From the IMG/VR virus record IMGVR_UViG_3300008740_000712, positions 55,131 to 119,130 of that record: a stretch of 64,000 nt of DNA, one strand, 5' to 3'. This DNA comes from a virus. Of the stretch, positions 33,281 to 48,051 are shown piece by piece. The first letter of the stretch is position 1. Each line of letters begins with the position of its first letter. Position numbers and translations under genes: made by a program. The notes below the pieces were generated by a model that ran no database searches, was not told where the DNA came from, and saw only the letters and a list, made by a program, of their open reading frames with translations.

Positions 33281-34174
33281 TTATTTAAACCTACCCTTCA
33301 ATAAACTGGACACGTCTTCGGTGGGACTCAATCCCTTATTTTTATGAACCGAATACATGAGTGCTGGGTCAATAGTGTGGCAAAAATAGAACTGTAATTG
33401 GTCTTTTACATTAAGTGGTGATATATCACTGATTTTTCTTGCATCTGTTTTTTCCCATGTCATTAATTCGGCACCCTTATCAGAAATAAAGAATTTTGCG
33501 AATGTTACGTCGTCACCAATACACTTTACCTCGTAAGGACTGCGTACCATATCCACCCTGTTCTCTCTCTCCTCTTTAACTAACTCTTCAATAAGTTTTC
33601 GACTGACCAGGAATGCGGAACCACTAGCAAACATTATGACAGGTGGTTGATTTTGATTGTGCCCGTTGTCGTAAACACCTGGACTACCAGCATACACATT
33701 GTCTCTTTTCCCCAGAGATTCAACATATTGTTTTAAGATATTCAAATCTATATAAGTTCCACAGTTTGTTCTCAACACATAGTCAAACTCTTCATTATCC
33801 AAAATCCACTCAAAAGCATCAATTGTTTTGTAATATATATTTTCTCGGCCCTCCTGGGTATCGGAGTAGATACAATCATCAATTGCAAAAGGATGTCGCT
33901 TTCTTCGCACGTTGGTGCTGGCATCTTTAGGTGGTTGCCCTTCGTATATACAGGAGTCCTCGACCACATCTCTGTATTCAGATTCTTCAGGAAAATCAGT
34001 TCCTGGTCGATGCCCATATATGTAAAAAACTTTTACCCCGTCTACCTGCTGGGATGCCCACGTTCTACGGACTGCTGTTACCATATCTGTGTAACTAGAT
34101 GCTCGACCATCCTTGATGCATCTTCCGCAGACACATACATCATCATTCGATAAAACTATAACTGCTATTTTCAT
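33281..34174 (-). CDS. Putative GT-A glycosyltransferase (GT31-like)
   Basis: IRRTW-like VRRTWA, KTIDAFEWI...FDYVLRTN, FASGSAFLVS, GDDVTF pattern resembles galactosyltransferase-type enzymes. Confidence 0.55.
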   Translation of the reverse strand: MKIAVIVLSNDDVCVCGRCIKDGRASSYTDMVTAVRRTWASQQVDGVKVFYIYGHRPGTDFPEESEYRDVVEDSCIYEGQPPKDASTNVRRKRHPFAIDDCIYSDTQEGRENIYYKTIDAFEWILDNEEFDYVLRTNCGTYIDLNILKQYVESLGKRDNVYAGSPGVYDNGHNQNQPPVIMFASGSAFLVSRKLIEELVKEERENRVDMVRSPYEVKCIGDDVTFAKFFISDKGAELMTWEKTDARKISDISPLNVKDQLQFYFCHTIDPALMYSVHKNKGLSPTEDVSSLLKGRFK

Positions 34175-34214
34175 TCTGTCTCTCTCCTTAATTTACCCAC
34201 CATTGGTAATGTAT

Positions 34215-35000
34215 TTACCATGCTGATCTTCCGCCATTCATCACTATGTTCTCACCCGTCATATAGGAACTTGCCTCAGAACACAGAAAAACTATGGCAC
34301 CTTTATATTCGTCCCTTTTAGCCATACGACCCATAGGAATTAGATTTGCAAGTTTCTCAACAAACTCAACTGGCTGATTGTTGTAAACTCCTCCCGGACT
34401 CAAGCAATTAACTCTAATATTCTTTTCCGCAAAATAAGTGGCAAGATACTTTGTCATTCCCACAATTCCAAATTTAGAAGCAGAGTATGTTATCGGTTTT
34501 TTGCCATTTAAGTATATTCTTTGGTCAGGGGCAATGACACCCAAATCTGAGGAGATGTTCACAATTACACCGGAGCCGTCGGATGCGAACTTGTTACAAA
34601 ACACTTGGGAACACAAAAATGTTCCATCCAAACAAGTCTCTATTCCACTCTTCCATTCTTTTAGAGTCATTGTCTCAAAATCTCCCCCTACTTTTCCCTC
34701 TGAAGAAACTGTGGGGTTTTTTGCTGCGTTATTTATTAAGACATTGACAGTAGGGTGGGCAGAGGCAGCTGCTTCAATTGTCTTTCTGTCTGTCACGTCC
34801 ACAAAAACGGATCGTACTCTTTTTTGATCAAATTTCTCACACAATTTATCCGCAACCTCGGTGGCTTTTTCTAAGTCGTTATCTGCTATCACCACTGATC
34901 CTCCATGCTCCAGAATTGCCTCGGCGTGCATTTGACCCAACATTCCGGCACCACCAGTTATAAACACCGTCTTGCCCTTTAAATCAAAAATACTTGTCAT
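34215..35000 (-). CDS. Short-chain dehydrogenase/reductase (SDR)
   Basis: TGGAGMLG, LINNAA, NISS, YSASK, IRVNCLSPGG. Confidence 0.9.
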   Translation of the reverse strand: MTSIFDLKGKTVFITGGAGMLGQMHAEAILEHGGSVVIADNDLEKATEVADKLCEKFDQKRVRSVFVDVTDRKTIEAAASAHPTVNVLINNAAKNPTVSSEGKVGGDFETMTLKEWKSGIETCLDGTFLCSQVFCNKFASDGSGVIVNISSDLGVIAPDQRIYLNGKKPITYSASKFGIVGMTKYLATYFAEKNIRVNCLSPGGVYNNQPVEFVEKLANLIPMGRMAKRDEYKGAIVFLCSEASSYMTGENIVMNGGRSAW

Positions 35001-35760
35001 ATAAATCCTTGAATATTTTTGTATGATTTCTTATTGTCGATAATTCATCACCCGGCTTTTCTCTGGCAGTCTGTAATATAAATTGCCCAGAATAGTCCAC
35101 GGAACTTAATTTTTTAAATATTAGATCAAAATCTGTATCTCCGGTAGTGGGGGAGACTGTTTGTCTGTCATATGTTCTGTCCTTTATGTGTACATTTACA
35201 ATCTTTTCCCCGAAAAAATCTATAAACTCCTCGTGGTCAACACCGCAAGAAGTGATGTTTCCTGTATCATATGTAACACAAAAGTTATCACACAGACGCA
35301 CTATGTCATTTAATTTATCGATTGGCATTTCGGACTCAAAAGCAAATTTTATCTCAGGATACTTATCTCCATACTCCTTCACTATCTTACAAAAGTCCTG
35401 CCTCTCTTTGTCGTCATTTAAGTCACTTTCATCTAAAACAGGTATTGTCAAAATATACACCCCAATCGTCTGTGCCTGTCTGCAAACAGGATCTAAGTAT
35501 TTTGCTAAGAACTCCCTGTTTGCTATGAAATTGCTGACTAACGTATCAAGACATATCGACAACACTGGTTTTTCTCTAATGTCATCGGGATTAAGAAATA
35601 ATGGATTCTTATCAAAGGAATTGGGAGTAACCAACCACTCGACACCAGATAATCCTATTTTCTCCAAGGCATCGAATTCGTTTCTCCAATATCTTGGGAA
35701 CTCCTGATATAGACCGTCGGTGGGCCTCGTCAGTCGTCCTTGTAGCACCCCTATCTTCAT
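34984..35760 (-). CDS. Sugar-phosphate isomerase/epimerase (xylose-isomerase-like TIM barrel)
   Basis: IGVLQGRL, GVEW, FAFES, VTYDTGN, NVHIKDR, GDTDF motifs. Confidence 0.85.
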   Translation of the reverse strand: MKIGVLQGRLTRPTDGLYQEFPRYWRNEFDALEKIGLSGVEWLVTPNSFDKNPLFLNPDDIREKPVLSICLDTLVSNFIANREFLAKYLDPVCRQAQTIGVYILTIPVLDESDLNDDKERQDFCKIVKEYGDKYPEIKFAFESEMPIDKLNDIVRLCDNFCVTYDTGNITSCGVDHEEFIDFFGEKIVNVHIKDRTYDRQTVSPTTGDTDFDLIFKKLSSVDYSGQFILQTAREKPGDELSTIRNHTKIFKDLYDKYF

Positions 35761-36482
35761 TGCACAAACATCCTGTTTAACCTCACCTCTTCAGAAATCA
35801 TATGTCCGTCGTAAGAAATAACATGATGAGTATATTTTGCAACATCCTGAGTCGTCATAAAGGTATCATAAATTTGCCCCAACTTTTCAACTTCCTTGCC
35901 CATGTCGGTCTGAATCGATCCTGGGGAGATGCAGTACACTCTCACACCATCTTGCTTCAATTCCTTGAACAAAGACCTAGACAAACCCAAGAGGGCGTGC
36001 TTTGAGGCACAATAAGCAGATGTCTTGGGGGAACCACCGTAGGCTGAAGAGGAAGCAATATTCACAATTCTGCCCCACTGATTTTTCTTCATGCCGGGTA
36101 AAAACTCTCGAATAATAACAAAAGGAGATTCTACATTCACCTTCATGCAATTTTGAAAATCCTTCGTTGTCATATCCTCGATAGAAGATATGGGAAAAGT
36201 GGCAGCTGCGTTGACTACGACATCGATGTTCCCAAAATCATTTTTGATTGTAGATGTCATACTCAGTACAGACTCACTATCCGACAATTCGCAGACATAA
36301 GTTCCAATCTTCTGTTCTTTCATTGCGATAAGTGATAACTCGTCTTTTAAATTCAGAAGCTTTTTCCAGTCTCTTCCCACCAAAACAACATTGTTTCCTG
36401 TTTTGAGAAACTCTTCACACATCGACTTTCCAAGTCCTCCATACGCACCTGTTATAAGAATATTTTTACCCTGTAGTGTCAT
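35757..36482 (-). CDS. Short-chain dehydrogenase/reductase (SDR)
   Basis: TGAYGGLG, VVNAA, NIASS, YCASK, VRVYCISPG. Confidence 0.9.
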   Translation of the reverse strand: MTLQGKNILITGAYGGLGKSMCEEFLKTGNNVVLVGRDWKKLLNLKDELSLIAMKEQKIGTYVCELSDSESVLSMTSTIKNDFGNIDVVVNAAATFPISSIEDMTTKDFQNCMKVNVESPFVIIREFLPGMKKNQWGRIVNIASSSAYGGSPKTSAYCASKHALLGLSRSLFKELKQDGVRVYCISPGSIQTDMGKEVEKLGQIYDTFMTTQDVAKYTHHVISYDGHMISEEVRLNRMFVQ

Positions 36483-37299
36483 CTTTTTTTCTCAACTTTT
36501 TAGCAATTGGGATTTCCGAATCATAAACAATCTTTGCTCCCGTTCCTAGCATCAGTTCCATTTTTCGAATGCCATCAATTAAGGAATCGGAGTCTTCAAT
36601 CGAAGCAGACTGATCTGAACCGTAGGCAGTCCTATCGTTGGTTATGTGAAATTCAATGCACTCTGCACCAAGAGCAACTGCACCGACGCAGGCGTCTAAT
36701 CCACTATAGTGATTTGAAAAACCAACAGATAAATCAGGATAGTTTCCCTTTAGTGTTCGAATGTGTCTTAGGTTTATCTCTTCCGGTGCTGTGGGGTATG
36801 TGCTCGTACATGCTAGAACGATTTTTAAATTTTTAAGAATTCTTATTGCAGCAGAGATTTGCTCCGTAGTACACATTCCGGTAGACAGAATAACAGGTTT
36901 TCCTGTTTCGTTTAATTTGTTTAAAAACTCCTTATCGGTCGCAAGTGCAGATGCCACTTTATGATATTTGACATTTAAGTTTTCTTCAACAACATCGACA
37001 CTATCGATATCCCAACAGGAAATAATGAATTCCATGCCCTTCTTGGCGGTGTATTCTTCCAACTCTTTATATTGCTCAATGGAGAATTCCAGACCTTCCT
37101 TCTGCTGTCGATTGGTGGTGCCCCAGGGTGATTCCCTACCATTGTCCAACTCCTCTTTGGTATAGACAAGTTCTATTGTTCTTTTTTGAAACTTAACAGC
37201 ATTAGCACCAGATGATGCTGATTTATCTATTAGTTTCTTTGCCAGCTCTATATCACCGTTGTGGTTGATTCCTATTTCTGATATTACATATGTGGTCAT
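36466..37299 (-). CDS. neuB: N-acetylneuraminate / nonulosonic acid synthase (NeuB family)
   Basis: ISEIGINHNGD, ANAVKFQK, KVASA, KPVILSTGM, CTSTYP, GFSNH, IEFHIT; lacks the usual C-terminal SAF/AFP domain (277 aa). Confidence 0.9.
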   Translation of the reverse strand: MTTYVISEIGINHNGDIELAKKLIDKSASSGANAVKFQKRTIELVYTKEELDNGRESPWGTTNRQQKEGLEFSIEQYKELEEYTAKKGMEFIISCWDIDSVDVVEENLNVKYHKVASALATDKEFLNKLNETGKPVILSTGMCTTEQISAAIRILKNLKIVLACTSTYPTAPEEINLRHIRTLKGNYPDLSVGFSNHYSGLDACVGAVALGAECIEFHITNDRTAYGSDQSASIEDSDSLIDGIRKMELMLGTGAKIVYDSEIPIAKKLRKKDDTTG

Positions 37300-38510
37300 T
37301 AGTCTCTCCTATTATTGAAATATTCAATTGTTTTTCTCAGTGCATCTGCCTTGCTCTTTGCGATCCCTAGATTACGATAATTTGTCTTAATCTGCATTAA
37401 TCTTGGTTGCAACTCCTCTGCCACCGGGCATATCCCCTTTTGGTAAGATACGTTGGAATAAATTTCCGGATACCTTTTAACATATTCCCTATTATACATG
37501 AGGGGTTCTAGATACGGATTTTTCCAAGCGGCATAATATCCATCACCCCCAAGTTCGACATACTTGTCTCTAAACTCTTGCCAGATTACTCCCATGTGTG
37601 TGTCTCCATCATATCTTACTCCCAAAGTATAATACGAATGGACTGAATTGTAAAGAACTTTCTGAGGGGTTAAATAATCACACTCCCCAATTGCTTGCAG
37701 AAATAGATTTGCTACTGATTTTCTCATTTCTATTTTCTCTTCCAAGTCCTCGAATTGTGCCAAGGCAATTGCTGCGGAAAACTCACTGAGTCTGTAGTTC
37801 CAACCTAATGAGTCGTGTCTTTCGAAATCGGGATCTTGAAAATCATATTGGTTTGAGAACTTTATTTTTCCACCATCAGCGCTCAAATTCTTATAACCAT
37901 GTCCTGCTACTTTTCGAGCAGACATTGCAAGATTCTCATCATTGGTCAATAGTATGCCACCCTCTCCGCAACTCATTTGTTTAGCATTCTCGAAACTCCA
38001 ACTAGAAAAGGAATTAGAAACACCTACTCGGTTTCCCTTATGTTGGGACAAGAGGCATTGCGCGTGGTCCTCAATGACTGGAATATTGTATTTTTCGGAG
38101 ATCTCATTGATCCTACCCATGTCACAAACGGCACCGTATAAAGTGACGACAATAATTGCCTTTGTTGACGGAGTTATTTTTCTCTCTATATCCTCCGGAT
38201 CTATAACAAAAGTCTCCGGATCGACATCTGCATAGACTGGGATTGCATTACACTGTATGATAGTGGATGTATCCATGATTACCGTAAGTGCCGGTGTTAT
38301 AACTTCGTCACCAGCACCAACACCGAGGGCCTCTAGGGCAGCATGTAAGGTTGCGGTGCCGGAATTCATGGCAATAGCATACTTGCATTCAAAAAAATCC
38401 GAAAACTTCTTTTCCAGTGTTCTGCACCAGGTGCCGTGTTCTGCGGGTTGGCCATCCAGTACCATCTTCAGGTATTTTAATTCATTTCCTGTATATTTGT
38501 CACTCTTCAC
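37299..38510 (-). CDS. DegT/DnrJ/EryC1/StrS PLP-dependent sugar aminotransferase
   Basis: NSGTATLHAALEALGVGAGDEVI, VIEDHAQ, SFENAKQMSCGEGG, GWNYRLSE. Confidence 0.92.
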   Translation of the reverse strand: MKSDKYTGNELKYLKMVLDGQPAEHGTWCRTLEKKFSDFFECKYAIAMNSGTATLHAALEALGVGAGDEVITPALTVIMDTSTIIQCNAIPVYADVDPETFVIDPEDIERKITPSTKAIIVVTLYGAVCDMGRINEISEKYNIPVIEDHAQCLLSQHKGNRVGVSNSFSSWSFENAKQMSCGEGGILLTNDENLAMSARKVAGHGYKNLSADGGKIKFSNQYDFQDPDFERHDSLGWNYRLSEFSAAIALAQFEDLEEKIEMRKSVANLFLQAIGECDYLTPQKVLYNSVHSYYTLGVRYDGDTHMGVIWQEFRDKYVELGGDGYYAAWKNPYLEPLMYNREYVKRYPEIYSNVSYQKGICPVAEELQPRLMQIKTNYRNLGIAKSKADALRKTIEYFNNRRD

Positions 38511-39267
38511 TTTTGCTCTCCTTCAAAATTGGTTTATTAATATTTTCCTGATTCTTCTTCCACTTCTCATCAAGATAAAAATTAATATTTGCTAATTCAG
38601 GATTATCGCAAATCAACTTATATGCTTCTTGGAAGTTAATTGTTCTACCCTCTTGCAACAATCTTTTTATCACAGATTCAAAAAAAACCAAGTCGTCTTC
38701 GTAATCCAGAGTCATTCTTACATTCTTTTTTCTATAACATTCTGGCACATCTTGTATTCTCTGGACATCGAACAGATCTGTTTCGGTGAAGTATGGTCTG
38801 ATATATTCCGTCTTCTCTGTTGCCTTGATGTCGCAGACTTTTTTTAGAGAGTTGTAGGAAATTCCATAAGCATCATTATACAGTCCATGACCGTCTATAA
38901 AATCGACGTTGCTATTCTTGTTCTGCTCGAATATCAAATCAGCAAGTCCACAATCAAACAACAAATCATCTCCATCTACGTTCACAAAAAAATCAACCCC
39001 ATACTCTTCACAGGCAGACTTCCATCGAACTAACTTGTCCTCGTTTGCGCCGCGGAAGAAGGATATTCCATTCTCAGTTGCTATGTCGCACAAGGCAGTG
39101 TCCTCTTCTCTCTCGGTCGTACATAAAATAATTCTATCAGCATGTTTAGACTTCTTTAAACTGTCAATCAAGTAAAAGATAGTTGGTTTATCAACTATTT
39201 CCCTCATGGCCTTGAAGGGCAGCCTACTAGAATTTGCCCTAACAGATATAAAAATGCAATTACTCAC
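38500..39267 (-). CDS. CMP-nonulosonate synthetase / cytidylyltransferase (SpsF/PseF-like)
   Basis: VRANSSRLPFKAM, FFRGANEDKLVR, VNVDGDDLL, RMTLDYEDD. Confidence 0.85.
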   Translation of the reverse strand: MSNCIFISVRANSSRLPFKAMREIVDKPTIFYLIDSLKKSKHADRIILCTTEREEDTALCDIATENGISFFRGANEDKLVRWKSACEEYGVDFFVNVDGDDLLFDCGLADLIFEQNKNSNVDFIDGHGLYNDAYGISYNSLKKVCDIKATEKTEYIRPYFTETDLFDVQRIQDVPECYRKKNVRMTLDYEDDLVFFESVIKRLLQEGRTINFQEAYKLICDNPELANINFYLDEKWKKNQENINKPILKESKSEE

Positions 39268-40025
39268 CCTACACCACAGTCCAATAAATTGTCATGATTA
39301 AGATCCAGCATCGTATTCATGTACGGATCTATTTTAATGCAAGAATTTAGGGACAAGAGTCTCTTGAAGTAGGAGAGTTGAACCATCGCAGCATGGCTAC
39401 CGTGACCAAAGGTTCTCCCATCCGTGTCGGCCTTGTCCATATGACCAGGGCAATAAAGGTCTTCATATCTTTCACCACCGGTATAGAAAGAGAATCCGGT
39501 TATAAGCAATTCTTTGATAGGATAGTTAAGTAAAGTTACGATGCTTGCCATGCCTGTGTGAAACTCTACACCTATTTCTGCATATATCCTATTGTAATCC
39601 CTCACCCCAATCCAATAAAAAGGGAGGTCGTATTCGTTAATATCTTGAAAATTATGCACCACCTGACTTACGTGGTTGTCCGGCCAATTGAGAAAATCTA
39701 CGTCTTGGTGGGATGCTTTGGTGGCAGAACACACGACAAGTTTTAGATTTTTAAAATACTCTCGTCTGTCCTCCGACTCGATCTTCCTCTTTATACCTGG
39801 CATCCATTGCGTCCCGAAATTGCAAAACATAATATCTGTCCTGTTACCATAGTCCAACCTCTGTTGTTTTAGGGGAATGATCTCATTTGGTCGGCAGACT
39901 ACATCATAGTCATCAAGATGCTTGTGAAGATTTTTTCCCTGTAGGTATCCGGCCGGACCAATTAAAGCTACCGTCTTTCCCTGCACAATATCATACAAAT
40001 CCTTGTTTATCTCCAACTTTTTCAC
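39264..40025 (-). CDS. GT29-like sialyl/nonulosonyl-transferase
   Basis: Sialylmotif L-like GKTVALIGPAGYLQGKNLHKHLDDYDVVCRPN and S-like FHTGMASIVTLLNYPIKELLITGFSFY; probable GTG start at 40025 overlapping the upstream TAG. Confidence 0.7.
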   Translation of the reverse strand: MKKLEINKDLYDIVQGKTVALIGPAGYLQGKNLHKHLDDYDVVCRPNEIIPLKQQRLDYGNRTDIMFCNFGTQWMPGIKRKIESEDRREYFKNLKLVVCSATKASHQDVDFLNWPDNHVSQVVHNFQDINEYDLPFYWIGVRDYNRIYAEIGVEFHTGMASIVTLLNYPIKELLITGFSFYTGGERYEDLYCPGHMDKADTDGRTFGHGSHAAMVQLSYFKRLLSLNSCIKIDPYMNTMLDLNHDNLLDCGVG

Positions 40026-40672
40026 TATTTGTAATCCATTGTGCAAACTTCTGCTTTTTTTCTTAGAATAGTCATACCATTGCATCTTGGAATTGTAGAA
40101 TATTCCCACTCATCTAAATCCAACTCGGCAATTGCTCGATATGGGCCACCATGATCCCACTGTTTATCTTTCGAGTCCTGAACCGATCTATATTGGGGCT
40201 GTGAATTATAGTACATAAGATCGTGTAAAAGGAACAGGTCATTGGGTGTGGCATACTTGGAGATCAATTCTATCTCCCTCTTAACATGTTCATATGAATG
40301 CCAATCGTCAATATAAAAAATCCTAGACCTAGAAGAATTAGATGTTTCTTGCAATACTTCTTCCAGATCTTCTTCCAAGAATTTTATAGCATCTTTTTGG
40401 TGGAACTGCCATCTCTGCTTCCAGTGATCGGGGAATTGGAAGTCTGGTACTACCGGGTCAATATCGACCGAGATCAATTTTGAATCAATGATGTCGCAAG
40501 CACACAAGAAAGGCAAAGTGCTTCTAGCAGTACGGACTCCCAATTCTAAAATGAGACACGGCTTCATGGATATCGAAAGTGAGAAGAGTGTCATAAGATG
40601 TTCATCGATATCTCCCTTGCCGTGTACCACAAGGTGCGTCAGTAAGTCAATTGGATTAATATTTTTATTCAT
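40025..40672 (-). CDS. Class I SAM-dependent methyltransferase (Methyltransf_24-like)
   Basis: LELGVRTARST, SVDID, FYIDDWHSYEHV, LLHD. Confidence 0.8.
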   Translation of the reverse strand: MNKNINPIDLLTHLVVHGKGDIDEHLMTLFSLSISMKPCLILELGVRTARSTLPFLCACDIIDSKLISVDIDPVVPDFQFPDHWKQRWQFHQKDAIKFLEEDLEEVLQETSNSSRSRIFYIDDWHSYEHVKREIELISKYATPNDLFLLHDLMYYNSQPQYRSVQDSKDKQWDHGGPYRAIAELDLDEWEYSTIPRCNGMTILRKKAEVCTMDYK

Positions 40673-40699
40673 ATCTCTTTTCTCCTGAATCTATTGTAA

Positions 40700-40847
40700 T
40701 GGTGGAGGAGAGAGGATTCGAACCTCTGTCTCTTGTGTGCGAATTGGGTGTTTTTCCAATTAAACTACGGTATTTAACCGACAGACTCGAACTGCCATCT
40801 CTCAATTCATAGCACACACAATTGTTTTCCCACTAAACTACTCCCCC
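40700..40847 (-). ncRNA. Nested double-tRNA: tRNA-Ala-like shell with a circularly permuted second tRNA body fused through the anticodon arm
   Basis: Reverse complement parses as GGGGGAG TA GTTT AGTGGGA AAAC A ATTGT GTGTG CTATGAA TTGAG AGAT GGCAG TTCGAGT CTGTC GGTTAAATACCG TA GTTT AATTGGAA AAAC A CCCAA TTCGCAC ACAAG AGAC AGAGG TTCGAAT CCTCT CTCCTCC ACCA. It has two D-arms, two T-arms and one acceptor stem with G3:U70, A73 and CCA. Confidence 0.85.
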
Positions 40848-40859
40848 TTTATAATTCTC

Positions 40860-40887
40860 ATTGTATCACATTTATTGGATTTGTTAT
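40860..40887 (-). promoter_or_regulatory. Putative sigma70-type promoter of the tRNA-like RNA
   Basis: ATAACA-16 nt-TACAAT with an extended -10 (TG-A-TACAAT), 12 nt upstream of the RNA 5' G. Confidence 0.5.
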
Positions 40888-40901
40888 ATAATTTTCTTTC
40901 T

Positions 40902-41669
40902 TCACAAAATTGCTTGAACCTTAGTTGGTTCGAAAAGCATTCTTTCTTTCCACACTGGGTATGCTCCGTGGCCACCGTAAATCACATATCTAACACCATC
41001 TCGATGAAATAAATTCTTTATGACGGAAACGAGCATAGTCATCATAATCCCATCCCTAAGATGATCGGCATCTGCCAAAATAAGGTGAACAAGTACGGTT
41101 TCTCCCTCTATCGCAATTCTACAGTATCCATACAACCTTTCATTAGTAACTCTATCATCTTGTTTGTAGTTTTTTAAGTACCTGAAGATGCCATGCCACA
41201 AAGAATAGTGGTTCTGATCTTCCCATCTATGTTCACCACCAGTGTGCATCCCAGAAAAATTCTCAGGCTTTTGCAAGTACCACGGATTCATATTTCCTTT
41301 TCGTCTTTGTTGTGAAAAGTTAATCTTTGAAAAGTCCTGCACAAACTCATTAAAATCGTATTCTCTTACATAATATTTCTTTTTTTTGCAGTTCTCTATA
41401 TCTCTCCTGACATTTGCGGATAGATTACTGTAATATTTTTTAAAATCATAATCATATTTCTCTAAATCAATGACGGACATCCCGGCGGTGCCGGAATAAA
41501 GGGGGTGAGTGCCGTTATTTATGCTTTTTATAACATTCTCATATTCTCGTCCATTGAAATTATCACGACAATGATTCAAGTCCCACAACTTATAACAATC
41601 GGAATGATAAGAAATTCCTTGCAATTTTATTCTTTCGTTATTATAAAGTTTTGGATATATTGTTTTCAC
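40902..41669 (-). CDS. GNAT-fold protein, FemAB / Acetyltransf_6-like
   Basis: SVIDLEKYDYDFKKYYSNLSANVRRDIENCKKKKYYVREY matches the Fem-like xDL...L....RRxI.K...V pattern; the C-terminus has a GNAT-like strand/helix order (LYGYCRI...VHLILAD...GIMMTML...YVIYGG). Confidence 0.6.
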   Translation of the reverse strand: MKTIYPKLYNNERIKLQGISYHSDCYKLWDLNHCRDNFNGREYENVIKSINNGTHPLYSGTAGMSVIDLEKYDYDFKKYYSNLSANVRRDIENCKKKKYYVREYDFNEFVQDFSKINFSQQRRKGNMNPWYLQKPENFSGMHTGGEHRWEDQNHYSLWHGIFRYLKNYKQDDRVTNERLYGYCRIAIEGETVLVHLILADADHLRDGIMMTMLVSVIKNLFHRDGVRYVIYGGHGAYPVWKERMLFEPTKVQAIL

Positions 41670-41986
41670 TTCATCTCCTCTATCATAAAAAATTCTCTTG
41701 AGTTTATTGCTTTGTCACAAATAAAAATATCATAAGATGGTTTGCCCATCTTCAATTCTGCGTACTTAACTCCCCAATCGTCCAATTGCGTGGATGTAAG
41801 CAAAGAGTGATCTTCTCCCGTGGTGCCTCCCCTGGCAGTCCAATATACTATGGTATGGCCAGCATCATAAAATTTGTTAATTTTTTCTATATTTTTAACC
41901 AGAGGTGTTGCAGCTGCATAATCTCTTTTTCCACTTGTCTTCGGATGTTCGCAAATAGTCTCGTCAATATCAACATATATAATCAT
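41666..41986 (-). CDS. Small HAD-superfamily phosphatase (capsule-biosynthesis type)
   Basis: IYVDIDETIC, VYWTARG, MGKPSYDIFICDKA. Confidence 0.8.
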   Translation of the reverse strand: MIIYVDIDETICEHPKTSGKRDYAAATPLVKNIEKINKFYDAGHTIVYWTARGGTTGEDHSLLTSTQLDDWGVKYAELKMGKPSYDIFICDKAINSREFFMIEEMK

Positions 41987-42703
41987 TTAATAATCCTCCC
42001 AACTCAATACGGGATTGGATAGTCTATCGTCTATACTCTTTCCGTTTGGTCGTATTCTAGTAAACCTAATTGGGTATCTCCCTATCCGCAGGCCGGATGT
42101 GGTCAGGTGCCAAAAGAGGGTAGATTCAGCATGTAGTGATCCACCCTGTGATACAAATTCCCTAACTCGTTCATATTCAGAAAGGTATATCTGCATATTC
42201 TCATAGTTGCTCACTGCGAACCTATCATTGCAACCTCCGCCCTGAACTCTGTCGAAATTGTGGAAATCGGGGACACACATATTTGCAAGATCTAAATCCT
42301 TGGGGATGTGCTTTAGAAAAGATATATCTAATCTCGAAAAAACAACCTTATCGTAAATGAAGTTATTTTCCCTACAATGCTCCCTAATCATCTCTCCACA
42401 TTTCTTTCTCGACAACAGCATGTTCAGATATGTTTGTTTTGGGAATTGACCGGAGTGTGGGCCTGCGGGCCAATTGTGTTGCCAACGAAGACCTTCCAAC
42501 TCGATTTCTTCATCGGACTCTACTTTTAGTTGTATAATGTTCTCGTAGTTCAGATGCTCGTGTACCTGATCTATAAATTTTGAATCGGAGACATGGGCAA
42601 ATATATCACATTGCTCTTCAGTATCTATGAGGTACTTCTTTAAGTTCTCGTGAGTATACTTTAACGATCTCCCTGTTCCAGTGAAGCAAATTGCTGTTTT
42701 CAT
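41987..42703 (-). CDS. Putative glycosyltransferase / glycan-modifying protein
   Basis: MKTAICFTGTGR, YDKVVFSRLDI, CNDRFAV, HAESTL pattern; context in the glycan island; start moved to ATG 42703. Confidence 0.5.
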   Translation of the reverse strand: MKTAICFTGTGRSLKYTHENLKKYLIDTEEQCDIFAHVSDSKFIDQVHEHLNYENIIQLKVESDEEIELEGLRWQHNWPAGPHSGQFPKQTYLNMLLSRKKCGEMIREHCRENNFIYDKVVFSRLDISFLKHIPKDLDLANMCVPDFHNFDRVQGGGCNDRFAVSNYENMQIYLSEYERVREFVSQGGSLHAESTLFWHLTTSGLRIGRYPIRFTRIRPNGKSIDDRLSNPVLSWEDY

Positions 42704-42713
42704 TTTCTTTTTC

Positions 42714-43640
42714 CTAATAGTTTGCATACCAAGGTGAATCAATAATTGAGTATGTTTTTATAAGTTCTCTTATTCCATCATCTAGATCATAAAGACAAGA
42801 AAATCCCTTAGAATAAAATTTGTCACTGCTGACGATGTAATCTCTGACATCTGGATCTGAATTAAACTCTGTCCTTATTATCTCTATGGGGGAGTGCTTG
42901 TTTATTGTTTTTGCCAGCTGTAGTTTGTTCATATTCAACGAGTCGTTACCGACGTTGTATGTTTCGTTCTTACATTTATCCCAATTTTCTATAACGAACA
43001 AGAAAGACCGGCAAACGTCGTCGATGTGAATGTAATTTCTCATAAACTCACATTCGTATAAGACGATCACCCTATCCTTCAATGCTCTTAGGACAAAATT
43101 ATTAACCAACAGATCACTTCGCATCCGACTGCTTGGCCCGAAGACTGTGGCAAGTCGGAATGTAACATGATTGTCTGCTTGCCTATAAAACTCCTCTGCT
43201 TCAACCTTTGTTTTGCCATATAGGGAAACGGGAGTGAGTGGTGATTCCTCGGTGCAGACTTTTCCATCCAATGATTTTCCGTATCCTGAATTTGTACATG
43301 GGTAAATGACAATCTGTTCTTTTGATTTGTTTTCTGCTATCCACTTATTTATATCTCTATTTATCTCTTCGGCATCTCTTGGACTGCGGTCGCACAATGG
43401 GAAACCAACTAGGGCAGCTAGTGGGATTATCACGTCACTGTCTCTCATCAGTGGTTCCAGTATGCTCGTATTTCGAACATCACCCTTAACAAAATTAAAG
43501 TTTTTCTCCTTGGTATATCTAAGGAGTGAGGTGTGATCATACATCAGACTGTCAACGACGGTGACTTGATGGTCTGGTAAAAGATATGATAACAATTCAC
43601 TTCCTATATATCCAGCACCTCCTGTAATTAAGATTTTCAT
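42714..43640 (-). CDS. NAD-dependent nucleotide-sugar epimerase/dehydratase
   Basis: MKILITGGAGYIG, PLAALVG, YGKTK, FRLATVFG; start moved to ATG 43640. Confidence 0.9.
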   Translation of the reverse strand: MKILITGGAGYIGSELLSYLLPDHQVTVVDSLMYDHTSLLRYTKEKNFNFVKGDVRNTSILEPLMRDSDVIIPLAALVGFPLCDRSPRDAEEINRDINKWIAENKSKEQIVIYPCTNSGYGKSLDGKVCTEESPLTPVSLYGKTKVEAEEFYRQADNHVTFRLATVFGPSSRMRSDLLVNNFVLRALKDRVIVLYECEFMRNYIHIDDVCRSFLFVIENWDKCKNETYNVGNDSLNMNKLQLAKTINKHSPIEIIRTEFNSDPDVRDYIVSSDKFYSKGFSCLYDLDDGIRELIKTYSIIDSPWYANY

Positions 43641-43641
43641 A

Positions 43642-44037
43642 CTATTCTTCTCCCAATATATTAGAGGTCGAAAAATTACCGACCCTATCAAAATACTTAA
43701 CCTCTCGGCAATATTGGCTCCCTACCACTGGTTTTTCCATATAGTCCGATCCAACAACTATGAAGTCCGGATCATAGATCCTAATCTTGTCTTCCAGTTC
43801 CATCGGTGAGGCAAAGGAGACTACTTCATCTACATATTTTATCGAAGACATCATCTCCACTCTATCAGAAAGGGTGTTTATCGGTCTTGTTTTTCCCTTG
43901 TCTCTTCTCACCTTTTCGTCAGTATCCAATCCGACGACGAGGGTGTGCCCAAGTGAACTTGCGTACTTCAACATCTCAATGTGGCCAATGTGAAGGATGT
44001 CAAAACACCCATTTGTCCACACTCTTATATTTCTCAT
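43642..44037 (-). CDS. HldE/RfaE domain II-like nucleotidyltransferase (HIGH family)
   Basis: VWTNGCFDILHIGH, LVVGLDTD, KGKTRPIN, IVVGSDY, FSTSNIL. Confidence 0.85.
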   Translation of the reverse strand: MRNIRVWTNGCFDILHIGHIEMLKYASSLGHTLVVGLDTDEKVRRDKGKTRPINTLSDRVEMMSSIKYVDEVVSFASPMELEDKIRIYDPDFIVVGSDYMEKPVVGSQYCREVKYFDRVGNFSTSNILGEE

Positions 44038-44041
44038 CTCA

Positions 44042-44794
44042 TTAGGTGTCTCGGTCAACTACAACAACCCCCTTTCGCTGAACAACACTGGTTGCACACT
44101 TGTTTGCAAACTGTAGTGAAAAATTAACATCACCTGTTTTAAGGATCTGCGTTGCGAAAGCTGCTAAAAAAGTATCTCCTGCTCCTGACAGGTCTTTGAT
44201 TTCGACCTTCTTGACTGGGAAAGTTTTTTTCCCGTATAAGCATCCGGATGAACCCTTTGTAATAATCAATTTCTCATCCAACCATTTCTTGTTTTCTATA
44301 AACTCTCTGCTTCTCTCATACTCAATCTCATTAACTTTTATAAAAGTTATGTTCTTGGCCCATGTGCCCAAAATCTTTTTTGTATCCAAAAAAGTACAAC
44401 CATGCTTTGAGGATATTTCAAAAATATCTTCCTTCTTTAAGAAACCCTTATCATAATCTGAGATAACAATTGCATCATATTTTTCGTAATCTATCCTGCC
44501 TATGTCTTCTATCCTCTTTACGGACTCTTCACCTGAATCGACTCTAACGATCATGTGGTTTGTCTTTTCCTCCACATACCTCGTCTTTGTAACTTCGTCA
44601 AGATTAGTGATCAAGTCACACTCCACTCCGAGGGAGATCAAGTTAGAATAAACATTACCAGACATACCTTTGCTTATAATATTTTTCGTTGGTACGAAAA
44701 CAGGAACAGGTGCATCGGGGCATTGCCTGTCGGCAGTGCCGTAAACGTAAACATCCTTACAACTGTCTCCTATAACAAGAACCCTCACTTCCAA
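44042..44794 (-). CDS. HldE/RfaE domain I-like heptose-7-phosphate kinase (PfkB family)
   Basis: LVIGDSCKD, PDAPVPV, IVISDYDKG, DLSGAGDTF. Confidence 0.85.
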   Translation of the reverse strand: MEVRVLVIGDSCKDVYVYGTADRQCPDAPVPVFVPTKNIISKGMSGNVYSNLISLGVECDLITNLDEVTKTRYVEEKTNHMIVRVDSGEESVKRIEDIGRIDYEKYDAIVISDYDKGFLKKEDIFEISSKHGCTFLDTKKILGTWAKNITFIKVNEIEYERSREFIENKKWLDEKLIITKGSSGCLYGKKTFPVKKVEIKDLSGAGDTFLAAFATQILKTGDVNFSLQFANKCATSVVQRKGVVVVDRDT

Positions 44795-45195
44795 CTAATC
44801 TCCCAATCTTTAAAATCAGCTGCCAGACAGTCAACTTTATAATCCTTCCTGCCACCAGCAATTTCTTGGATTTTATTTTTTGAGGTGTTCCTTATCCCAT
44901 TTAGTCCATGCGTGAGTTCCAAATTGTTACCATCCTTGATTCCTCTTCTGTAATTGCTTTCATTGTGCCAAATGTGAAGATTCATTTGTGAGAGAACGAC
45001 GATGGCTCTGATTATCTCTGCTCCGATGTCTTCTTCGCAATCCCTTAAACATATATCGATGTCGTGGACGATTTCGGAAATCTCTTTTGCATATTCCTCT
45101 TTGTGTTCTGGTATGAACACTTCCTTTAGTTGAGCTATTGACAATCTGTCAATTAATTCACTCAGTGTTGGTAAATATTTTCTCTCTTGCTTCAT
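44785..45195 (-). CDS. Hypothetical helical protein
   Basis: YLPTLSELIDRLSIAQLK...IWHNE; ATGA overlap at 45192-45195. Confidence 0.65.
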   Translation of the reverse strand: MKQERKYLPTLSELIDRLSIAQLKEVFIPEHKEEYAKEISEIVHDIDICLRDCEEDIGAEIIRAIVVLSQMNLHIWHNESNYRRGIKDGNNLELTHGLNGIRNTSKNKIQEIAGGRKDYKVDCLAADFKDWEISWK

Positions 45196-46145
45196 AACAT
45201 CTCCCTTTTGTACCAATCCACAGTCTTGGCAAGACCTTCTCTTAAAGTGTGTAACTTATTATCAACCGTCCACCCATACAATCTCTTTGATTTATCTATG
45301 TTCAGTACTTTCCTCTTTACTCCGACAAAACGATCTGTGTTATATACGATGTCTCCCTTAAACCCAGATACATCTTTAATCATTTCTGCTAAATCAGAAA
45401 TCCTGGTTTCTTCTCCGCAACCGATATTAATCAAATCTCCGTCATGGTCGCAGGTTAATAGTAGTCCAGTAATCTGATCTTCTACAAATATCAACTCGCG
45501 GGTTTGGGTGCCATCTCCCCATACTTCCACTTCCCCCTTATCGTCCCTAACTGCTTCACAAAATTTCTTAATCAAAGCAGAAACGACATGACTCTTTGTT
45601 GGATCAAACTCATCATGTGGTCCATATAGGGTCGCGAAGACAGCAGTTGTACCTGGCAAATCGTACTGTTGCTTGTATGCTCGGATTCCTTGCTGCATCA
45701 GGCACTTTGTCAATCCGTATGTCTCGACAGAGGGATGTAGTGGTCCAGTAAAATAATCACTCTCTGACAGCACTGGAATGTCTCCGGGGTACGAACATGT
45801 GCTGCCGATGCCTACGATGCGGGAATCTGGTTGGAACCTCTTGCGGCACTCCAGTACGTTCGTGTGAATAAGGTTATTCTTATAAAATTGATCTGCTGGA
45901 TATTTTATTGTGAAGTCTCCTGCTCCTTGGAAAACAGCTGCATGGAATATTATATCATAGTCTTTCATTGTGAAGAGTTCTTTTGTCCTCTCCCAATCCA
46001 TTAGATTATAATTTCTTCCGGTGGCAGTCACATCTATTCCAGAGTCCCTAAGCAGGGGGACCATATTTTTCCCAAGGAATCCAGTTCCTCCGGTAATCAA
46101 AACTGTTTTATATTTTTCACTAAATTTTCTTATTACTTCTTGCAT
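45192..46145 (-). CDS. fcl: GDP-L-fucose synthase-like epimerase/reductase
   Basis: TGGTGFLG, GSTCSYP, YGLTK, LYGPHDEFDPTKSHVVSALI, EVWGDGTQTRELIFVED. Confidence 0.8.
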   Translation of the reverse strand: MQEVIRKFSEKYKTVLITGGTGFLGKNMVPLLRDSGIDVTATGRNYNLMDWERTKELFTMKDYDIIFHAAVFQGAGDFTIKYPADQFYKNNLIHTNVLECRKRFQPDSRIVGIGSTCSYPGDIPVLSESDYFTGPLHPSVETYGLTKCLMQQGIRAYKQQYDLPGTTAVFATLYGPHDEFDPTKSHVVSALIKKFCEAVRDDKGEVEVWGDGTQTRELIFVEDQITGLLLTCDHDGDLINIGCGEETRISDLAEMIKDVSGFKGDIVYNTDRFVGVKRKVLNIDKSKRLYGWTVDNKLHTLREGLAKTVDWYKREML

Positions 46146-46454
46146 CTACCACCTTATCTTTCCAGTTATAATATCCTTGCACATAATGATGTCACACATC
46201 TTTGCCTTTAGTGTTGTAATTCCGTAATCACCAGCACCGTCCCAAGCAAGAGGTTTGTTTTTTTCGAACAAAATATGTCCGGCCCAAGCAAAGGGGTAGA
46301 CGATGAATGGGGAAAAGATCAGAAACCAATATATTTCAAAATATAAACACAAAAGTACAAAGGAGACAGTAAAAACTTGGCCAATGAAGTGGAGTCGTCG
46401 ATTCCATCGGTTCTGATGTAATGATAGGTAGAATTTATAATATTCTTTTAACAT
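46146..46454 (-). CDS. DUF962 / Mpo1-like small membrane protein
   Basis: YLSLHQN..NRRLHFIG and FAWAGHILFEKNKP motifs. Confidence 0.75.
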   Translation of the reverse strand: MLKEYYKFYLSLHQNRWNRRLHFIGQVFTVSFVLLCLYFEIYWFLIFSPFIVYPFAWAGHILFEKNKPLAWDGAGDYGITTLKAKMCDIIMCKDIITGKIRW

Positions 46455-47291
46455 CTAAGTGGTGACTCCTCTCTTTGGCAATAATCCAACTTCATCAATC
46501 CAATAATCCAGAAACAATTTATCTTTGTTGGAGTCTCTCAGGATCTCTTCATATTGATTGTTTAAATAATCTTCATCTATGATTTTCCAATCGTCAACGA
46601 CCATTATTGGCATGTCCTCGTAGAAAGAAATATTGTGGCACCTCTCGACGACGGGGATTGTGCCGACAGATATTGACTCCCATATTCGGTGACAATCAAT
46701 TCCTGCTCCGGGTGGTGATACAGTAAACTTACTCTTTCGTAAGTCAACAATGTATTCCCCAAATGGTTTAGGCCCGGATTGTTTTACAAAAGTTTTATTT
46801 AAAAAAGTCTCCTGAATAGGTGTCCTCTTTGTGGAGTTTGTTGAAACATCAAAATTCATATACATTAGGTGTTCTTTCTCCAGTATCTCTGAATTTGCAT
46901 TTTGTATTAAACTGTAGTCTCCATGCATCCACCTATAATTTGCCAGACCGAGTGGCAATGAAAATAGTTTTGGATGTGGGAAATTAGCATTTTGAGCAAA
47001 CCAGTTTATTACTTTTGGATTCTCCAGCAAACTTACAAAATCCTCGTTTATTCCAAGGGCACTATTATGGGTTATAATGTTTATATCATAATCAATAATG
47101 GGAAGCACGTTATCTTCAAAAAGTTTTATATAATCCGTCTTAACGAAAACGAATTGGCCGTGGTGCGATATACTGGAGGCGGGATCATTTCTAAACTCGT
47201 CAAACACCATGTGGCATCGGTTTCGGAACCCCATACCTGTGACATAGGGGTAGGAGTCCATAGTGGCAGGTACGTCATCTCTGAAAGGCAT
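46455..47291 (-). CDS. Exostosin/GT47-like glycosyltransferase
   Basis: SKFTVSPPGAGIDCHRIWESISVGTIPVV. Confidence 0.7.
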   Translation of the reverse strand: MPFRDDVPATMDSYPYVTGMGFRNRCHMVFDEFRNDPASSISHHGQFVFVKTDYIKLFEDNVLPIIDYDINIITHNSALGINEDFVSLLENPKVINWFAQNANFPHPKLFSLPLGLANYRWMHGDYSLIQNANSEILEKEHLMYMNFDVSTNSTKRTPIQETFLNKTFVKQSGPKPFGEYIVDLRKSKFTVSPPGAGIDCHRIWESISVGTIPVVERCHNISFYEDMPIMVVDDWKIIDEDYLNNQYEEILRDSNKDKLFLDYWIDEVGLLPKRGVTT

Positions 47292-48051
47292 TTTTACTCT
47301 TCCTTGCTTTTTCTAAAATATCATTTATCTCTTCTTCGTAATTGCTAAATGGTCGAGGCATATGATAGTCAATATACCCACCAGATGATAACATTCCCTC
47401 ATCATATGCGGAAGCTTCGGATCTATCTACCCTGCCTATGGTGATTGCCGATCCATTATTAAACCCTCTTCTTAGAAATACCGTTCTCTCATCTTTGTCA
47501 ACCCAATTCCACCATTTTTGGAAAAACACTTTTTCATCTGTATACCATCCGTAAGAATGTTTCATCCAAGTTTCAACCTCTGGGATAAAATTGTGAATGT
47601 TAGATCTCAAGATCTTTTCGAACGTATTTCCAGTGGCACACATGTAGCACATAGGGAAAGCAGGGTAAGCAGGGTTTCCTGGCAAATAAGCATCAGCAGA
47701 ATAGAAAATAATATTGTCTGCATCAAGTGACTTTACTGGGTCTTTAAAATATCTCGTTTGTAAAGGGAGCATATCCAAGTCAGATATTAGACACATGTCG
47801 TCAGGGAACAAGGTTGTTCCGAAAAAACGGATAATCTGTGCTTGCTGTGCTGATGGAACGGAGTCTGATGGTGTTTGATAATATACATCTCCATACTTAG
47901 TGCTTAAATTTAAATCCTCATTGCCGATGACGAATAGAGTTGGTCTTATCCCAACATTCTCGCTCCATGCTTCAGAGACTATATTCCAAAATTCTAAATA
48001 ATCTCTATTATCATTTGATGACAAAATTACTCTATCTATTTCCATCTTCAT
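47275..48051 (-). CDS. Putative glycosyltransferase
   Basis: IIRFF...CLISDLDMLP (DxD), YIDYHMPRP; glycan-island context. Confidence 0.55.
   Translation of the reverse strand: MKMEIDRVILSSNDNRDYLEFWNIVSEAWSENVGIRPTLFVIGNEDLNLSTKYGDVYYQTPSDSVPSAQQAQIIRFFGTTLFPDDMCLISDLDMLPLQTRYFKDPVKSLDADNIIFYSADAYLPGNPAYPAFPMCYMCATGNTFEKILRSNIHNFIPEVETWMKHSYGWYTDEKVFFQKWWNWVDKDERTVFLRRGFNNGSAITIGRVDRSEASAYDEGMLSSGGYIDYHMPRPFSNYEEEINDILEKARKSKNAFQR

Follow-up and report, generated by a model that had tools for sequence, protein, structure and literature searches.

An anticodon-less RNA with alanine identity and two tRNA-like elbows, encoded beside a Fem-like transferase in a marine phage nonulosonate cluster

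Non-ribosomal aminoacyl transfer is known from Fem enzymes, MprF, L/F-transferase and natural-product enzymes; to our knowledge, and in the literature searched, its donors are either ordinary tRNAs or isoacceptors that differ little from them. The staphylococcal non-proteinogenic tRNA-Gly carriers bind elongation factor Tu (EF-Tu) weakly (PMC4574755, PMC3239215). Orf11 converts streptothrisamine to glycylthricin with Gly-tRNA; in FemX of Weissella viridescens (FemX_Wv), Lys305 is catalytic and is preceded by Phe304, and DhpH-C has the pair Phe328-Lys329 (PMC12945691). Mimicry of tRNA has been described for YrlA (PMC4201824). The subject here is a gene pair in a viral record, consisting of a tRNA-like RNA of 148 nt and a Fem/MprF-like transferase of 255 residues. 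The pair lies in a stretch of 64,000 nucleotides, hereafter the window, which is the 3' 64 kb of a 119-kb (119,130 bp) IMG/VR virus record (IMGVR_UViG_3300008740_000712) with a completeness estimate of 66%. The window has genes for PhoH, a baseplate wedge protein and an endolysin-like protein, together with very large tail-fibre-like open reading frames (ORFs), a combination that identifies it as DNA of a marine myovirus-type phage. The two genes are the following.

40902..41669, minus strand: Fem/MprF-like GNAT-fold transferase P0001, 255 aa (ORF, translation and AlphaFold2 (AF2) fold; no Pfam model)
40700..40847, minus strand: double-elbow, anticodon-less RNA with alanine identity, 148 nt including the encoded CCA at 40700-40702 (sequence, fold and covariance model)

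The stop codon of the enzyme gene is separated from G1 of the RNA, at 40847, by a gap of 54 nt on the same strand. ARAGORN calls no conventional tRNA or transfer-messenger RNA (tmRNA) gene in the window or in the whole 119,130-bp record, of which the double-elbow RNA is the sole tRNA-like gene.

A structured RNA with an alanine-type acceptor end

Direct reading and folding of the sequence give an acceptor stem of 7 bp (GGGGGAG/CUCCUCC) with G3·U70, A73 and an encoded CCA. The variable region of this outer, tRNA-like half is 5 nt long. The anticodon arm is replaced by a helix of about 8 bp, a conserved 3-nt bulge and a further 8 bp (16 bp in total), and this helix opens into a second multiloop. 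The inner module that follows contains, in order, a variable loop, a second T arm (GGCAG-UUCGAGU-CUGUC), a closed mini-hairpin (GGU-UAAAU-ACC) and a second D arm (GUUU-AAUUGGAA-AAAC). This arrangement of T arm, closed acceptor-like hairpin and D arm is the order of the YrlA consensus. The inner closed hairpin is variable, and in about half of the RNA family it is only a short linker of 5 nt. The parts of the RNA are placed as follows.

40824..40847, minus strand: 5' acceptor strand GGGGGAG, U8-A9 and outer D arm GUUU-AGUGGGA-AAAC; G1-G4, U8, A14 and the D-loop GG invariant
40733..40821, minus strand: extended helix in the anticodon-arm position, enclosing the inner module; consensus helices 3-6 each with compensatory changes
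40703..40727, minus strand: outer T arm AGAGG-UUCGAAU-CCUCU, 3' acceptor strand CUCCUCC (with U70) and discriminator A73; C69, U70, C71, C72 and A73 invariant in 23/23 sequences

The family alignment comprises 23 distinct sequences, 136-152 nt long, from which an RNAalifold consensus was derived. The consensus has 36 pairs in seven helices: the acceptor stem, the D arm, two segments of the long helix, the inner T arm, the inner D arm and the outer T arm. Compensatory double changes occur in 23 of the 36 pairs. Paired cells amount to 96.5% of the total, against 82.4% in shuffles, and none of 500 shuffles reaches any of five measures. When the partner columns are slid by 1-3 positions, pairing collapses to 43-64%. 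A covariance model (R1), built from the same alignment, finds the RNA in the window (131.6 bits) and in each of the 31 loci that extend far enough downstream, with scores of 118-143 bits; three loci left out of model building (L007, L008 and L011) still score 123-128 bits. Throughout the 23-sequence alignment, the universal tertiary nucleotides are kept in both elbows: U8, A14, the GG of the D loop and, in the T loop, U54-U55-C56, A58 and C61.

Promoter sequences lie immediately before the RNA. A perfect TTGACA-17-TATAAT is present in five relatives (L002:8730-8772, L004, L010, L012 and L016) and ends 8 nt before G1. L014 has an 11/12 match to the sigma-70 consensus promoter that ends at the same distance from G1. 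The match in the window is weaker.

40860..40887, minus strand: promoter-like site ATAACA-16-TACAAT with TG extension, between the enzyme stop codon and the RNA (sequence match)

In the clade with the promoter 8 nt before G1, transcription would begin at the mature 5' end of the RNA or beside it, so that the RNA would be a primary transcript. Covariation, shuffle tests, model hits, conserved tertiary nucleotides and promoters together distinguish an RNA gene from a chance fold: the 148-nt element is a true conserved structured RNA gene. No description of such an RNA was found in Rfam 15 or in the literature searched.

At gathering thresholds, Rfam gives no match across the whole 64 kb. Below threshold, the best match of the RNA is to tmRNA (30.1 bits against a threshold of 47, E 2.8e-10), covering only the two ends and skipping 273 model positions. 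The inner module has a sub-threshold match to YrlA, RF02553 (20.6 bits against 69, E 0.1). Assignment to a described class was rejected in each case considered. A canonical tRNA-Ala does not fit, as the anticodon stem continues into the 16-bp helix and second multiloop and ARAGORN makes no call. An intron-containing or permuted tRNA would need an anticodon loop, and none can be formed; the inner 'acceptor', moreover, is a 5-nt linker in about half of the family. Membership of tmRNA (RF00023) fails on the score and on the absence of an ARAGORN tmRNA call, and 148 nt leave no room for a tag frame. YrlA or another bacterial Y RNA is rejected on score and because defining parts are lacking.

In bacteria, tRNA-Ala identity resides in A73, G2-C71, G3·U70 and G4-C69, with G20 as a minor element and no anticodon determinant (PMC9976931). 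The complete acceptor-stem set is present throughout the RNA family. G1-C72, G2-C71, G3·U70, G4-C69 and A73 are invariant in all 23 distinct sequences, and the acceptor pairs 5-68, 6-67 and 7-66 vary freely with compensation (A-U, G-C, U-A). Wobble pairs are not frozen in general in this family, since the G·U pair 10-26 of the same RNA alternates with G-C. We strongly infer that the RNA would be charged by alanyl-tRNA synthetase (AlaRS), judging from these nucleotides.

Binding to EF-Tu was estimated with a published additive table for T-stem pairs 49-65, 50-64 and 51-63 (PMC3239215). The tRNA-Ala class means given there are -10.0 to -10.3 kcal/mol, with a sigma of about 0.5 and an outlier criterion of 1.3 kcal/mol. 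For the 18 RNAs that can be calculated, the computed values run from -9.8 to -8.0 kcal/mol and average -9.3; five further RNAs carry a non-standard 50-64 pair and fall outside the table. All 18 are weaker than the tRNA-Ala mean, just two of them beyond the outlier criterion. A modest net weakening of EF-Tu binding by the T stem is therefore predicted. The missing anticodon arm is a stronger reason than this weakening to expect exclusion from decoding.

A first-pass annotation of this DNA, made from its letters, had described several of the RNA features above. It had read an alanine set of G3:U70 and A73, which proves to be invariant in the family, and an anticodon that was masked; sequence and fold show an RNA without an anticodon loop. 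The pairs A49-U65 and A51-U63 that it placed in the T stem both follow from AGAGG/CCUCU. Its further claim that both pairs are of the weak EF-Tu-binding type holds for A51-U63 (weak, +1.1 kcal/mol) but not for A49-U65, which is tight (-0.5 kcal/mol).

The Fem-like enzyme and its linkage to the RNA

Relatives were fetched by protein similarity, yielding 5 viral and 29 metagenomic loci, and the RNA was sought downstream of each protein match. It follows the enzyme gene both in the window and in 31/31 related loci that extend far enough, at protein identities down to 28%; relatives of just 28-35% identity still carry it. The 5' part of the RNA can be read on two truncated contigs, and a 3'-truncated copy stands at a contig end. 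In L007, L008 and L011, the enzyme gene and the RNA are separated by one methyltransferase-like ORF. The association is also recovered from the opposite direction: a pattern containing RNA features only, run over the 2.9 million contigs of IMG/VR, returns five contigs, the same five as the protein scan. The relatives are, without exception, uncultured marine sequences.

When the window island was compared with 21 loci by tblastn, the flanking genes differed from locus to locus, and the order of enzyme gene followed by RNA was constant. The neighbours are distributed as follows.

Upstream of the enzyme gene: GT29-like gene in most loci; cytidylyltransferase in L006; TIM-barrel protein in L032-L034; HAD-like gene in the window
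Downstream of the RNA: cytidylyltransferase in most loci; DegT in L006 and L032-L034; methyltransferase in the window; inverted block in L031

Beyond these loci the pair was sought in three collections. In 185,579 prokaryote species genomes there was no match to the protein or RNA patterns, which were strict enough that distant forms could be missed. INPHARED records of cultured phages gave no protein match, and the only DNA match was a T-arm-like stretch of 35 nt. An exact 25-mer from the RNA 3' end had no match in IMG/VR.

Sequence comparison says little about the enzyme. Pfam has no family for the 255-aa protein, its sole match being to Acetyltransf_8 at E 0.15; there is no PHROG match, no PDB sequence match with two profiles, and no FemAB family member elsewhere in the record by Pfam. 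The label of GNAT or Fem type is therefore based on fold and not on sequence family. A language-model search for look-alikes led to Mig-14/Acetyltransf_6 and FemAB clusters, which are taken as leads only. A profile search of 1.84 billion representatives found 472 relatives at E up to 0.001, and the common domain of the 62 relatives examined likewise has no Pfam family.

A first AlphaFold model has a mean predicted local distance difference test (pLDDT) score of 74.8. A second AF2 model, made on 63 sequences, reaches a pLDDT of 96.7 and a predicted template modelling (pTM) score of 0.92. Both models were compared exhaustively with 48,161 PDB representatives, and Foldseek was used in addition. 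The five nearest structures are the same for both models, all are aminoacyl-tRNA-dependent transferases, and the aligned spans fall within residues 5-254.

FemX_Sa: Z 15.5 with the first model, 14.0 with the second
MprF soluble domain: Z 13.5 with the first model, 13.7 with the second, over 191 residues
Sbb17: Z 14.8 with the first model, 13.0 with the second
FemX_Wv: Z 14.1 with the first model, 12.9 with the second, over 211 residues
FemA: Z 14.1 with the first model, 12.6 with the second

The nearest acetyl-coenzyme A (acetyl-CoA) enzyme, VipF, scores 13.5 with the first model and 11.9 with the second, and covers only residues 58/61-250. Single-domain GNATs reach at most 12.0 and 10.5, respectively, and cover only residues ~90-255. 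A PseH-like enzyme as the nearest fold was rejected: PseH structures appear in none of the lists, and single-domain GNATs score lower. The Foldseek leaders are Sbb17 (the best, at E 2.2e-6), Sba18, the DUF2156 domain of MprF and FemX, with E values of 2e-6 to 3e-5. The PDB entry of Sbb17 is titled as an aminoacyl-tRNA-dependent peptide synthase in complex with streptothrisamine.

Across 63 diverse members only Y182 and K241 are invariant, and W240, which precedes K241, is 94% conserved. By alignment ranges alone (model 10-254, chain 14-319), K241 would correspond to about residue 306 of FemX_Wv, within about one position of K305. The acetyl-CoA P-loop motif Q/R-x-x-G-x-G/A, which follows strand beta-4, is degenerate and reads L204-x-x-G207-x-M209, with conservation across the family of 84% for L204, 94% for G207 and 94% for M209. 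This speaks against acetyl-CoA use in only a suggestive way, as the motif is not strictly required for CoA binding.

The first-pass annotation had placed a GNAT gene 54 nt upstream of the RNA on the same strand, amid sugar-biosynthesis genes. The ORF at 40902-41669 and G1 at 40847 confirm the spacing, the peptide that it quoted is found in the 255-aa translation, and the DegT gene at 37299-38510 adjoins NeuB, cytidylyltransferase and GT29-like genes. On the two questions that it raised for further analysis, the nearest five of the 48,161 structures are FemX, MprF, Sbb17, FemX_Wv and FemA, and the pair occurs together in every relative examined, in searches begun from the RNA as well as in those begun from the protein. 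Its assignment to Acetyltransf_6 survives as a faint signal in 4 of 62 relatives (best E 0.006); P0001 itself has no Pfam match. The interpretation that it built on these features, alanine transfer from a dedicated carrier, gains from the fold, the co-occurrence and the acceptor-stem identity set, whereas its EF-Tu argument stands only in part and its Acetyltransf_6 label has no more than that faint signal behind it.

The nonulosonate cluster and the role proposed for the pair

The pair is embedded in genes for a sialic-acid-like sugar.

36466..37299, minus strand: NeuB-family nonulosonate synthase (Pfam NeuB, 2.5e-62), conserved in relatives
37299..38510, minus strand: DegT/PseC-type aminotransferase (Pfam DegT_DnrJ_EryC1, 5e-79), beside the pair in 21/21 loci
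38500..39267, minus strand: cytidylyltransferase of the cytidine monophosphate (CMP)-nonulosonate type (Pfam CTP_transf_3, 5.6e-14), directly after the RNA in most relatives
39264..40109, minus strand: GT29-like (sialyltransferase-like) protein (Pfam Glyco_transf_29, 6.5e-5, just below cut-off)
40025..40672, minus strand: methyltransferase of the CmcI/Methyltransf_24 type, the first gene after the RNA in the window

The window, the 21 compared loci and three relatives with 16-kb loci (L003, L004 and L006) all encode DegT, NeuB and the cytidylyltransferase together. Further genes around the pair encode two short-chain dehydrogenases/reductases, a TIM-barrel epimerase-like protein, NAD epimerases/dehydratases and a heptose-type set. 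No second acyltransferase was found in the window cluster, 33281-48051. Among the 56 other ORFs of the three 16-kb relatives there is a single hexapeptide acyltransferase, in one locus.

Several neighbouring genes are of interest in their own right. The GT29-like gene resembles eukaryote-type sialyltransferases, with 43-55% identity in L002-L027 and a Pfam score of 22.9 bits against a cut-off of 23. In most relatives it stands directly upstream of the Fem-like gene; in the window its place has shifted to the downstream side of the RNA. Window positions 41666-46145 (minus strand), upstream of the Fem-like gene, hold a HAD/phosphoheptose-isomerase-like ORF, DUF7796, an NAD epimerase, a cytidylyltransferase-like ORF, a PfkB kinase and another epimerase. 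This set resembles a nucleotide-sugar pathway of the heptose type, adjoining the nonulosonate genes. An ORF of 714 aa at window positions 60857-63001 (minus strand) has a cytidyltransferase-like C-terminal part (PHROG 395/3041). ORFs of L003, L004 or L006 include a class IV aminotransferase, an FkbM methyltransferase, a GT47-like protein and a barrel resembling a cyanophage outer-membrane protein. The class IV aminotransferase family includes D-alanine aminotransferases.

In the canonical pathways to pseudaminic and legionaminic (5,7-diamino) acids, an acetyl-CoA N-acetyltransferase is needed right after the aminotransferase. Because the window cluster has no other acyltransferase, the amine made by DegT is a reasonable acceptor for the Fem-like enzyme. 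By carbon count, C4 of the hexose turns into C7 of the nonulosonate, which places this amine at N7. For Vibrio vulnificus, a paper that names no enzyme for the alanyl step reports Leg5Ac7AcAla, a legionaminic acid whose alanyl group is written at position 7 (PMC7371886). An N-alanyl nonulosonate is therefore chemically precedented.

The mechanism proposed for the pair can be set out in steps. (i) The RNA would be made as a small stable RNA, either from its own promoter or by excision from the operon transcript through RNase P and RNase Z. (ii) Where the gene lacks an encoded CCA, the triplet would be added. (iii) Host AlaRS would read the acceptor stem alone (G2-C71, G3·U70, G4-C69 and A73) and charge the RNA with L-alanine. 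(iv) The charged RNA would be kept from translation. With no anticodon arm and a bulky second elbow it should be unable to decode, and its T stem is predicted to bind EF-Tu somewhat less well than tRNA-Ala. (v) The 255-aa enzyme would take the Ala-RNA as aminoacyl donor, with K241 acting like Lys305 of FemX, and form an amide with an amine. (vi) The acceptor would be the 4-amino group put on a nucleotide-hexose by DegT, later N7 of the nonulosonate. (vii) The product, an N-alanyl nonulosonic acid, would then be activated with CMP and transferred by the GT29-like enzyme. The second elbow is probably a handle by which the phage enzyme, or processing or charging factors, distinguish the carrier from cellular tRNA-Ala.

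On balance it is somewhat more probable than not that host AlaRS charges the RNA and that the Fem-like enzyme transfers alanine to an amino sugar within the phage nonulosonate pathway, with charging, donor and acceptor all inferred. The fuller proposal is put forward more tentatively, as one that could nearly as well be right as wrong. It is that the RNA represents a new class, a dedicated non-decoding aminoacyl carrier in which the acceptor half of tRNA-Ala is fused through the anticodon stem to a second elbow. This carrier would be charged by host AlaRS and read by a new Fem-like family, so that N-alanyl nonulosonic acids are made without drawing on translational Ala-tRNA; the second elbow would be the handle that makes the system orthogonal.

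Several observations weigh against alanine transfer from the RNA. Only 11 of the 23 RNAs have G20, a minor determinant of alanine identity. CCA is encoded in only 4 of the 23 sequences, so that for most members a host CCA-adding enzyme would be needed. Sequence methods place the protein in none of FemAB, DUF2156 or Acetyltransf_6. Some of the 62 relatives examined are fused to a sulfotransferase (4/62), GT2, asparagine synthase/GATase or hexapeptide-transferase domain, which makes the family look like a general glycan-tailoring domain. A distant member of 199 aa (L043:1547-2146, IMGVR_UViG_3300020576_000703) lies beside small and large terminase and portal genes, and in its 6.1-kb locus no double-elbow RNA, tRNA or sugar genes were found. 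From this member and the fused relatives it follows that the wider protein family is independent of the RNA and that only the present clade is bound up with it. In addition, acetyl-CoA tandem GNATs trail the best matches by only 1-2 Z units, and for this reason the modelled fold favours an aminoacyl-tRNA donor without proving one. The protein could simply be the acetyl-CoA N-acetyltransferase of the pathway.

If it were such an ordinary acyl-CoA N-acyltransferase, a counterpart of PseH or LegH, the RNA would be unrelated to catalysis and might be a processing or stabilizing element of the operon, or a decoy that engages tRNA-binding or tRNA-cutting factors of the host. An N-acyltransferase is required after DegT and the window offers no other; the fold is that of a GNAT, with the acetyl-CoA tandem enzymes VipF and MAB_4324 close behind the Fem-type matches. 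The RNA, too, sits at an operon junction, is not followed by a terminator and has its own promoter in several relatives, and the hexapeptide acyltransferase in one of the three relatives' loci has been counted on the same side. A processing signal or decoy, however, needs no invariant G3·U70, G2-C71, G4-C69 and A73 while pairs 5-7 drift. Nor does this explanation account well for an RNA that has kept to one gene through several rearrangements of the cluster and shares the same five of 2.9 million IMG/VR contigs with the protein. With a degenerate P-loop motif and best full-length structural matches that are users of aminoacyl-tRNA, we regard it as unlikely. The strict linkage of the gene pair would also suit an RNA that is the target or partner of the enzyme, modified in itself or at its aminoacyl group in the way that GNAT toxins acetylate aminoacyl-tRNA, or serving like a Y RNA as a regulator or scaffold to which the enzyme or a host protein is tethered. 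Such a role would give the second elbow a purpose that is not obvious in a simple donor model, and the inner module does have the YrlA layout and a weak YrlA match. That match is far under the threshold of 69 bits, however, and no Ro60/Rsr (TROVE) gene was matched in the record, which is about 66% complete. The invariant alanine identity set and the open acceptor end with A73 would be left unexplained, and the full-length fold is that of donor-type aminoacyl-tRNA transferases and not of small GNAT toxins; the target or scaffold role is accordingly judged quite improbable. The enzyme might, lastly, use the charged RNA on another acceptor: the N-terminus of a virion or host protein, as L/F-transferase does, a lipid in the manner of MprF, a peptidoglycan precursor like that of the Fem enzymes, or the finished glycan. 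Its structural neighbours MprF, FemX and ATE1 act on lipids, peptidoglycan precursors and protein N-termini, and the island adjoins the baseplate and very large tail-fibre-like genes. In 21 of 21 loci, however, the pair lies within the cluster of DegT, NeuB and CMP-transferase genes, from which the N-acyl step is otherwise missing, and Sbb17, a close structural match, acts on an amino sugar. An acceptor other than a nonulosonate precursor is quite improbable on this evidence.

Comparison with described systems

If alanine transfer from the RNA is correct, the pair would provide a clean natural example of an aminoacyl-carrier RNA outside translation, one whose anticodon arm has been lost, which has acquired a second elbow and which moves together with its enzyme. 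It would also provide a route to alanylated sialic-acid-like sugars, with a bearing on how marine phages decorate virion or host surfaces. The locus joins a structured RNA class absent from Rfam to a protein family absent from Pfam (472 representatives, E up to 0.001). At 148 nt and 255 aa, it is a compact system for work on the reading of tRNA shape by AlaRS, EF-Tu, RNase P and Fem-type enzymes.

The staphylococcal FemXAB enzymes and their tRNA-Gly carriers are a close functional parallel, in which a GNAT-fold transferase takes an amino acid from a charged carrier outside translation, as is proposed here. Those carriers are full cloverleafs with anticodons, are not encoded beside the enzymes and serve peptidoglycan synthesis. 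The phage carrier, in contrast, has no anticodon arm, has a second elbow, adjoins the enzyme gene and lies in a sugar pathway. The phage enzyme has one full GNAT domain and a reduced N-terminal part, and is not a Pfam FemAB protein. In W. viridescens, FemX recognizes its alanine donor at the acceptor end and uses an aromatic-Lys catalytic pair (PMC12945691), to which W240-K241 of the phage enzyme would correspond. It differs in using ordinary cellular tRNA-Ala and UDP-MurNAc-pentapeptide, and has no detectable sequence similarity to the phage enzyme. Sbb17, Sba18 and Orf11 are Fem-like GNATs that carry out tRNA-dependent aminoacyl transfer in natural-product pathways, with Z values of 13.0-15.2 to the phage enzyme. 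These are actinomycete antibiotic enzymes and use ordinary Gly-tRNA-Gly, with no dedicated RNA. The C-terminal domain of MprF (DUF2156) is likewise a tandem-GNAT, aminoacyl-tRNA-dependent transferase (Z 13.5-13.7 over 191 residues), but its acceptor is a lipid, its donor is ordinary Lys- or Ala-tRNA, and it is fused to a membrane flippase.

For the RNA, the nearest relatives in form are tmRNA and YrlA. The tRNA-like domain of tmRNA, the best Rfam match of the phage RNA, has a GGGG.../...CUCCA acceptor with G3·U70, a T arm and a long helix in place of the anticodon arm, and is itself charged by AlaRS. The phage RNA, unlike tmRNA, has no mRNA-like frame and no pseudoknots, is only 136-152 nt long and has a true D stem. 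YrlA shares the order and shape of the inner module, with a helix, T arm, closed acceptor-like hairpin and D arm. Its outer helix binds Ro60/Rsr and has no aminoacylatable end, whereas the outer end of the phage RNA is an alanine-type acceptor stem. A member of neither tRNA, tmRNA nor YrlA, the phage RNA is an acceptor half like that of tmRNA and tRNA-Ala joined to a closed elbow like that of YrlA.

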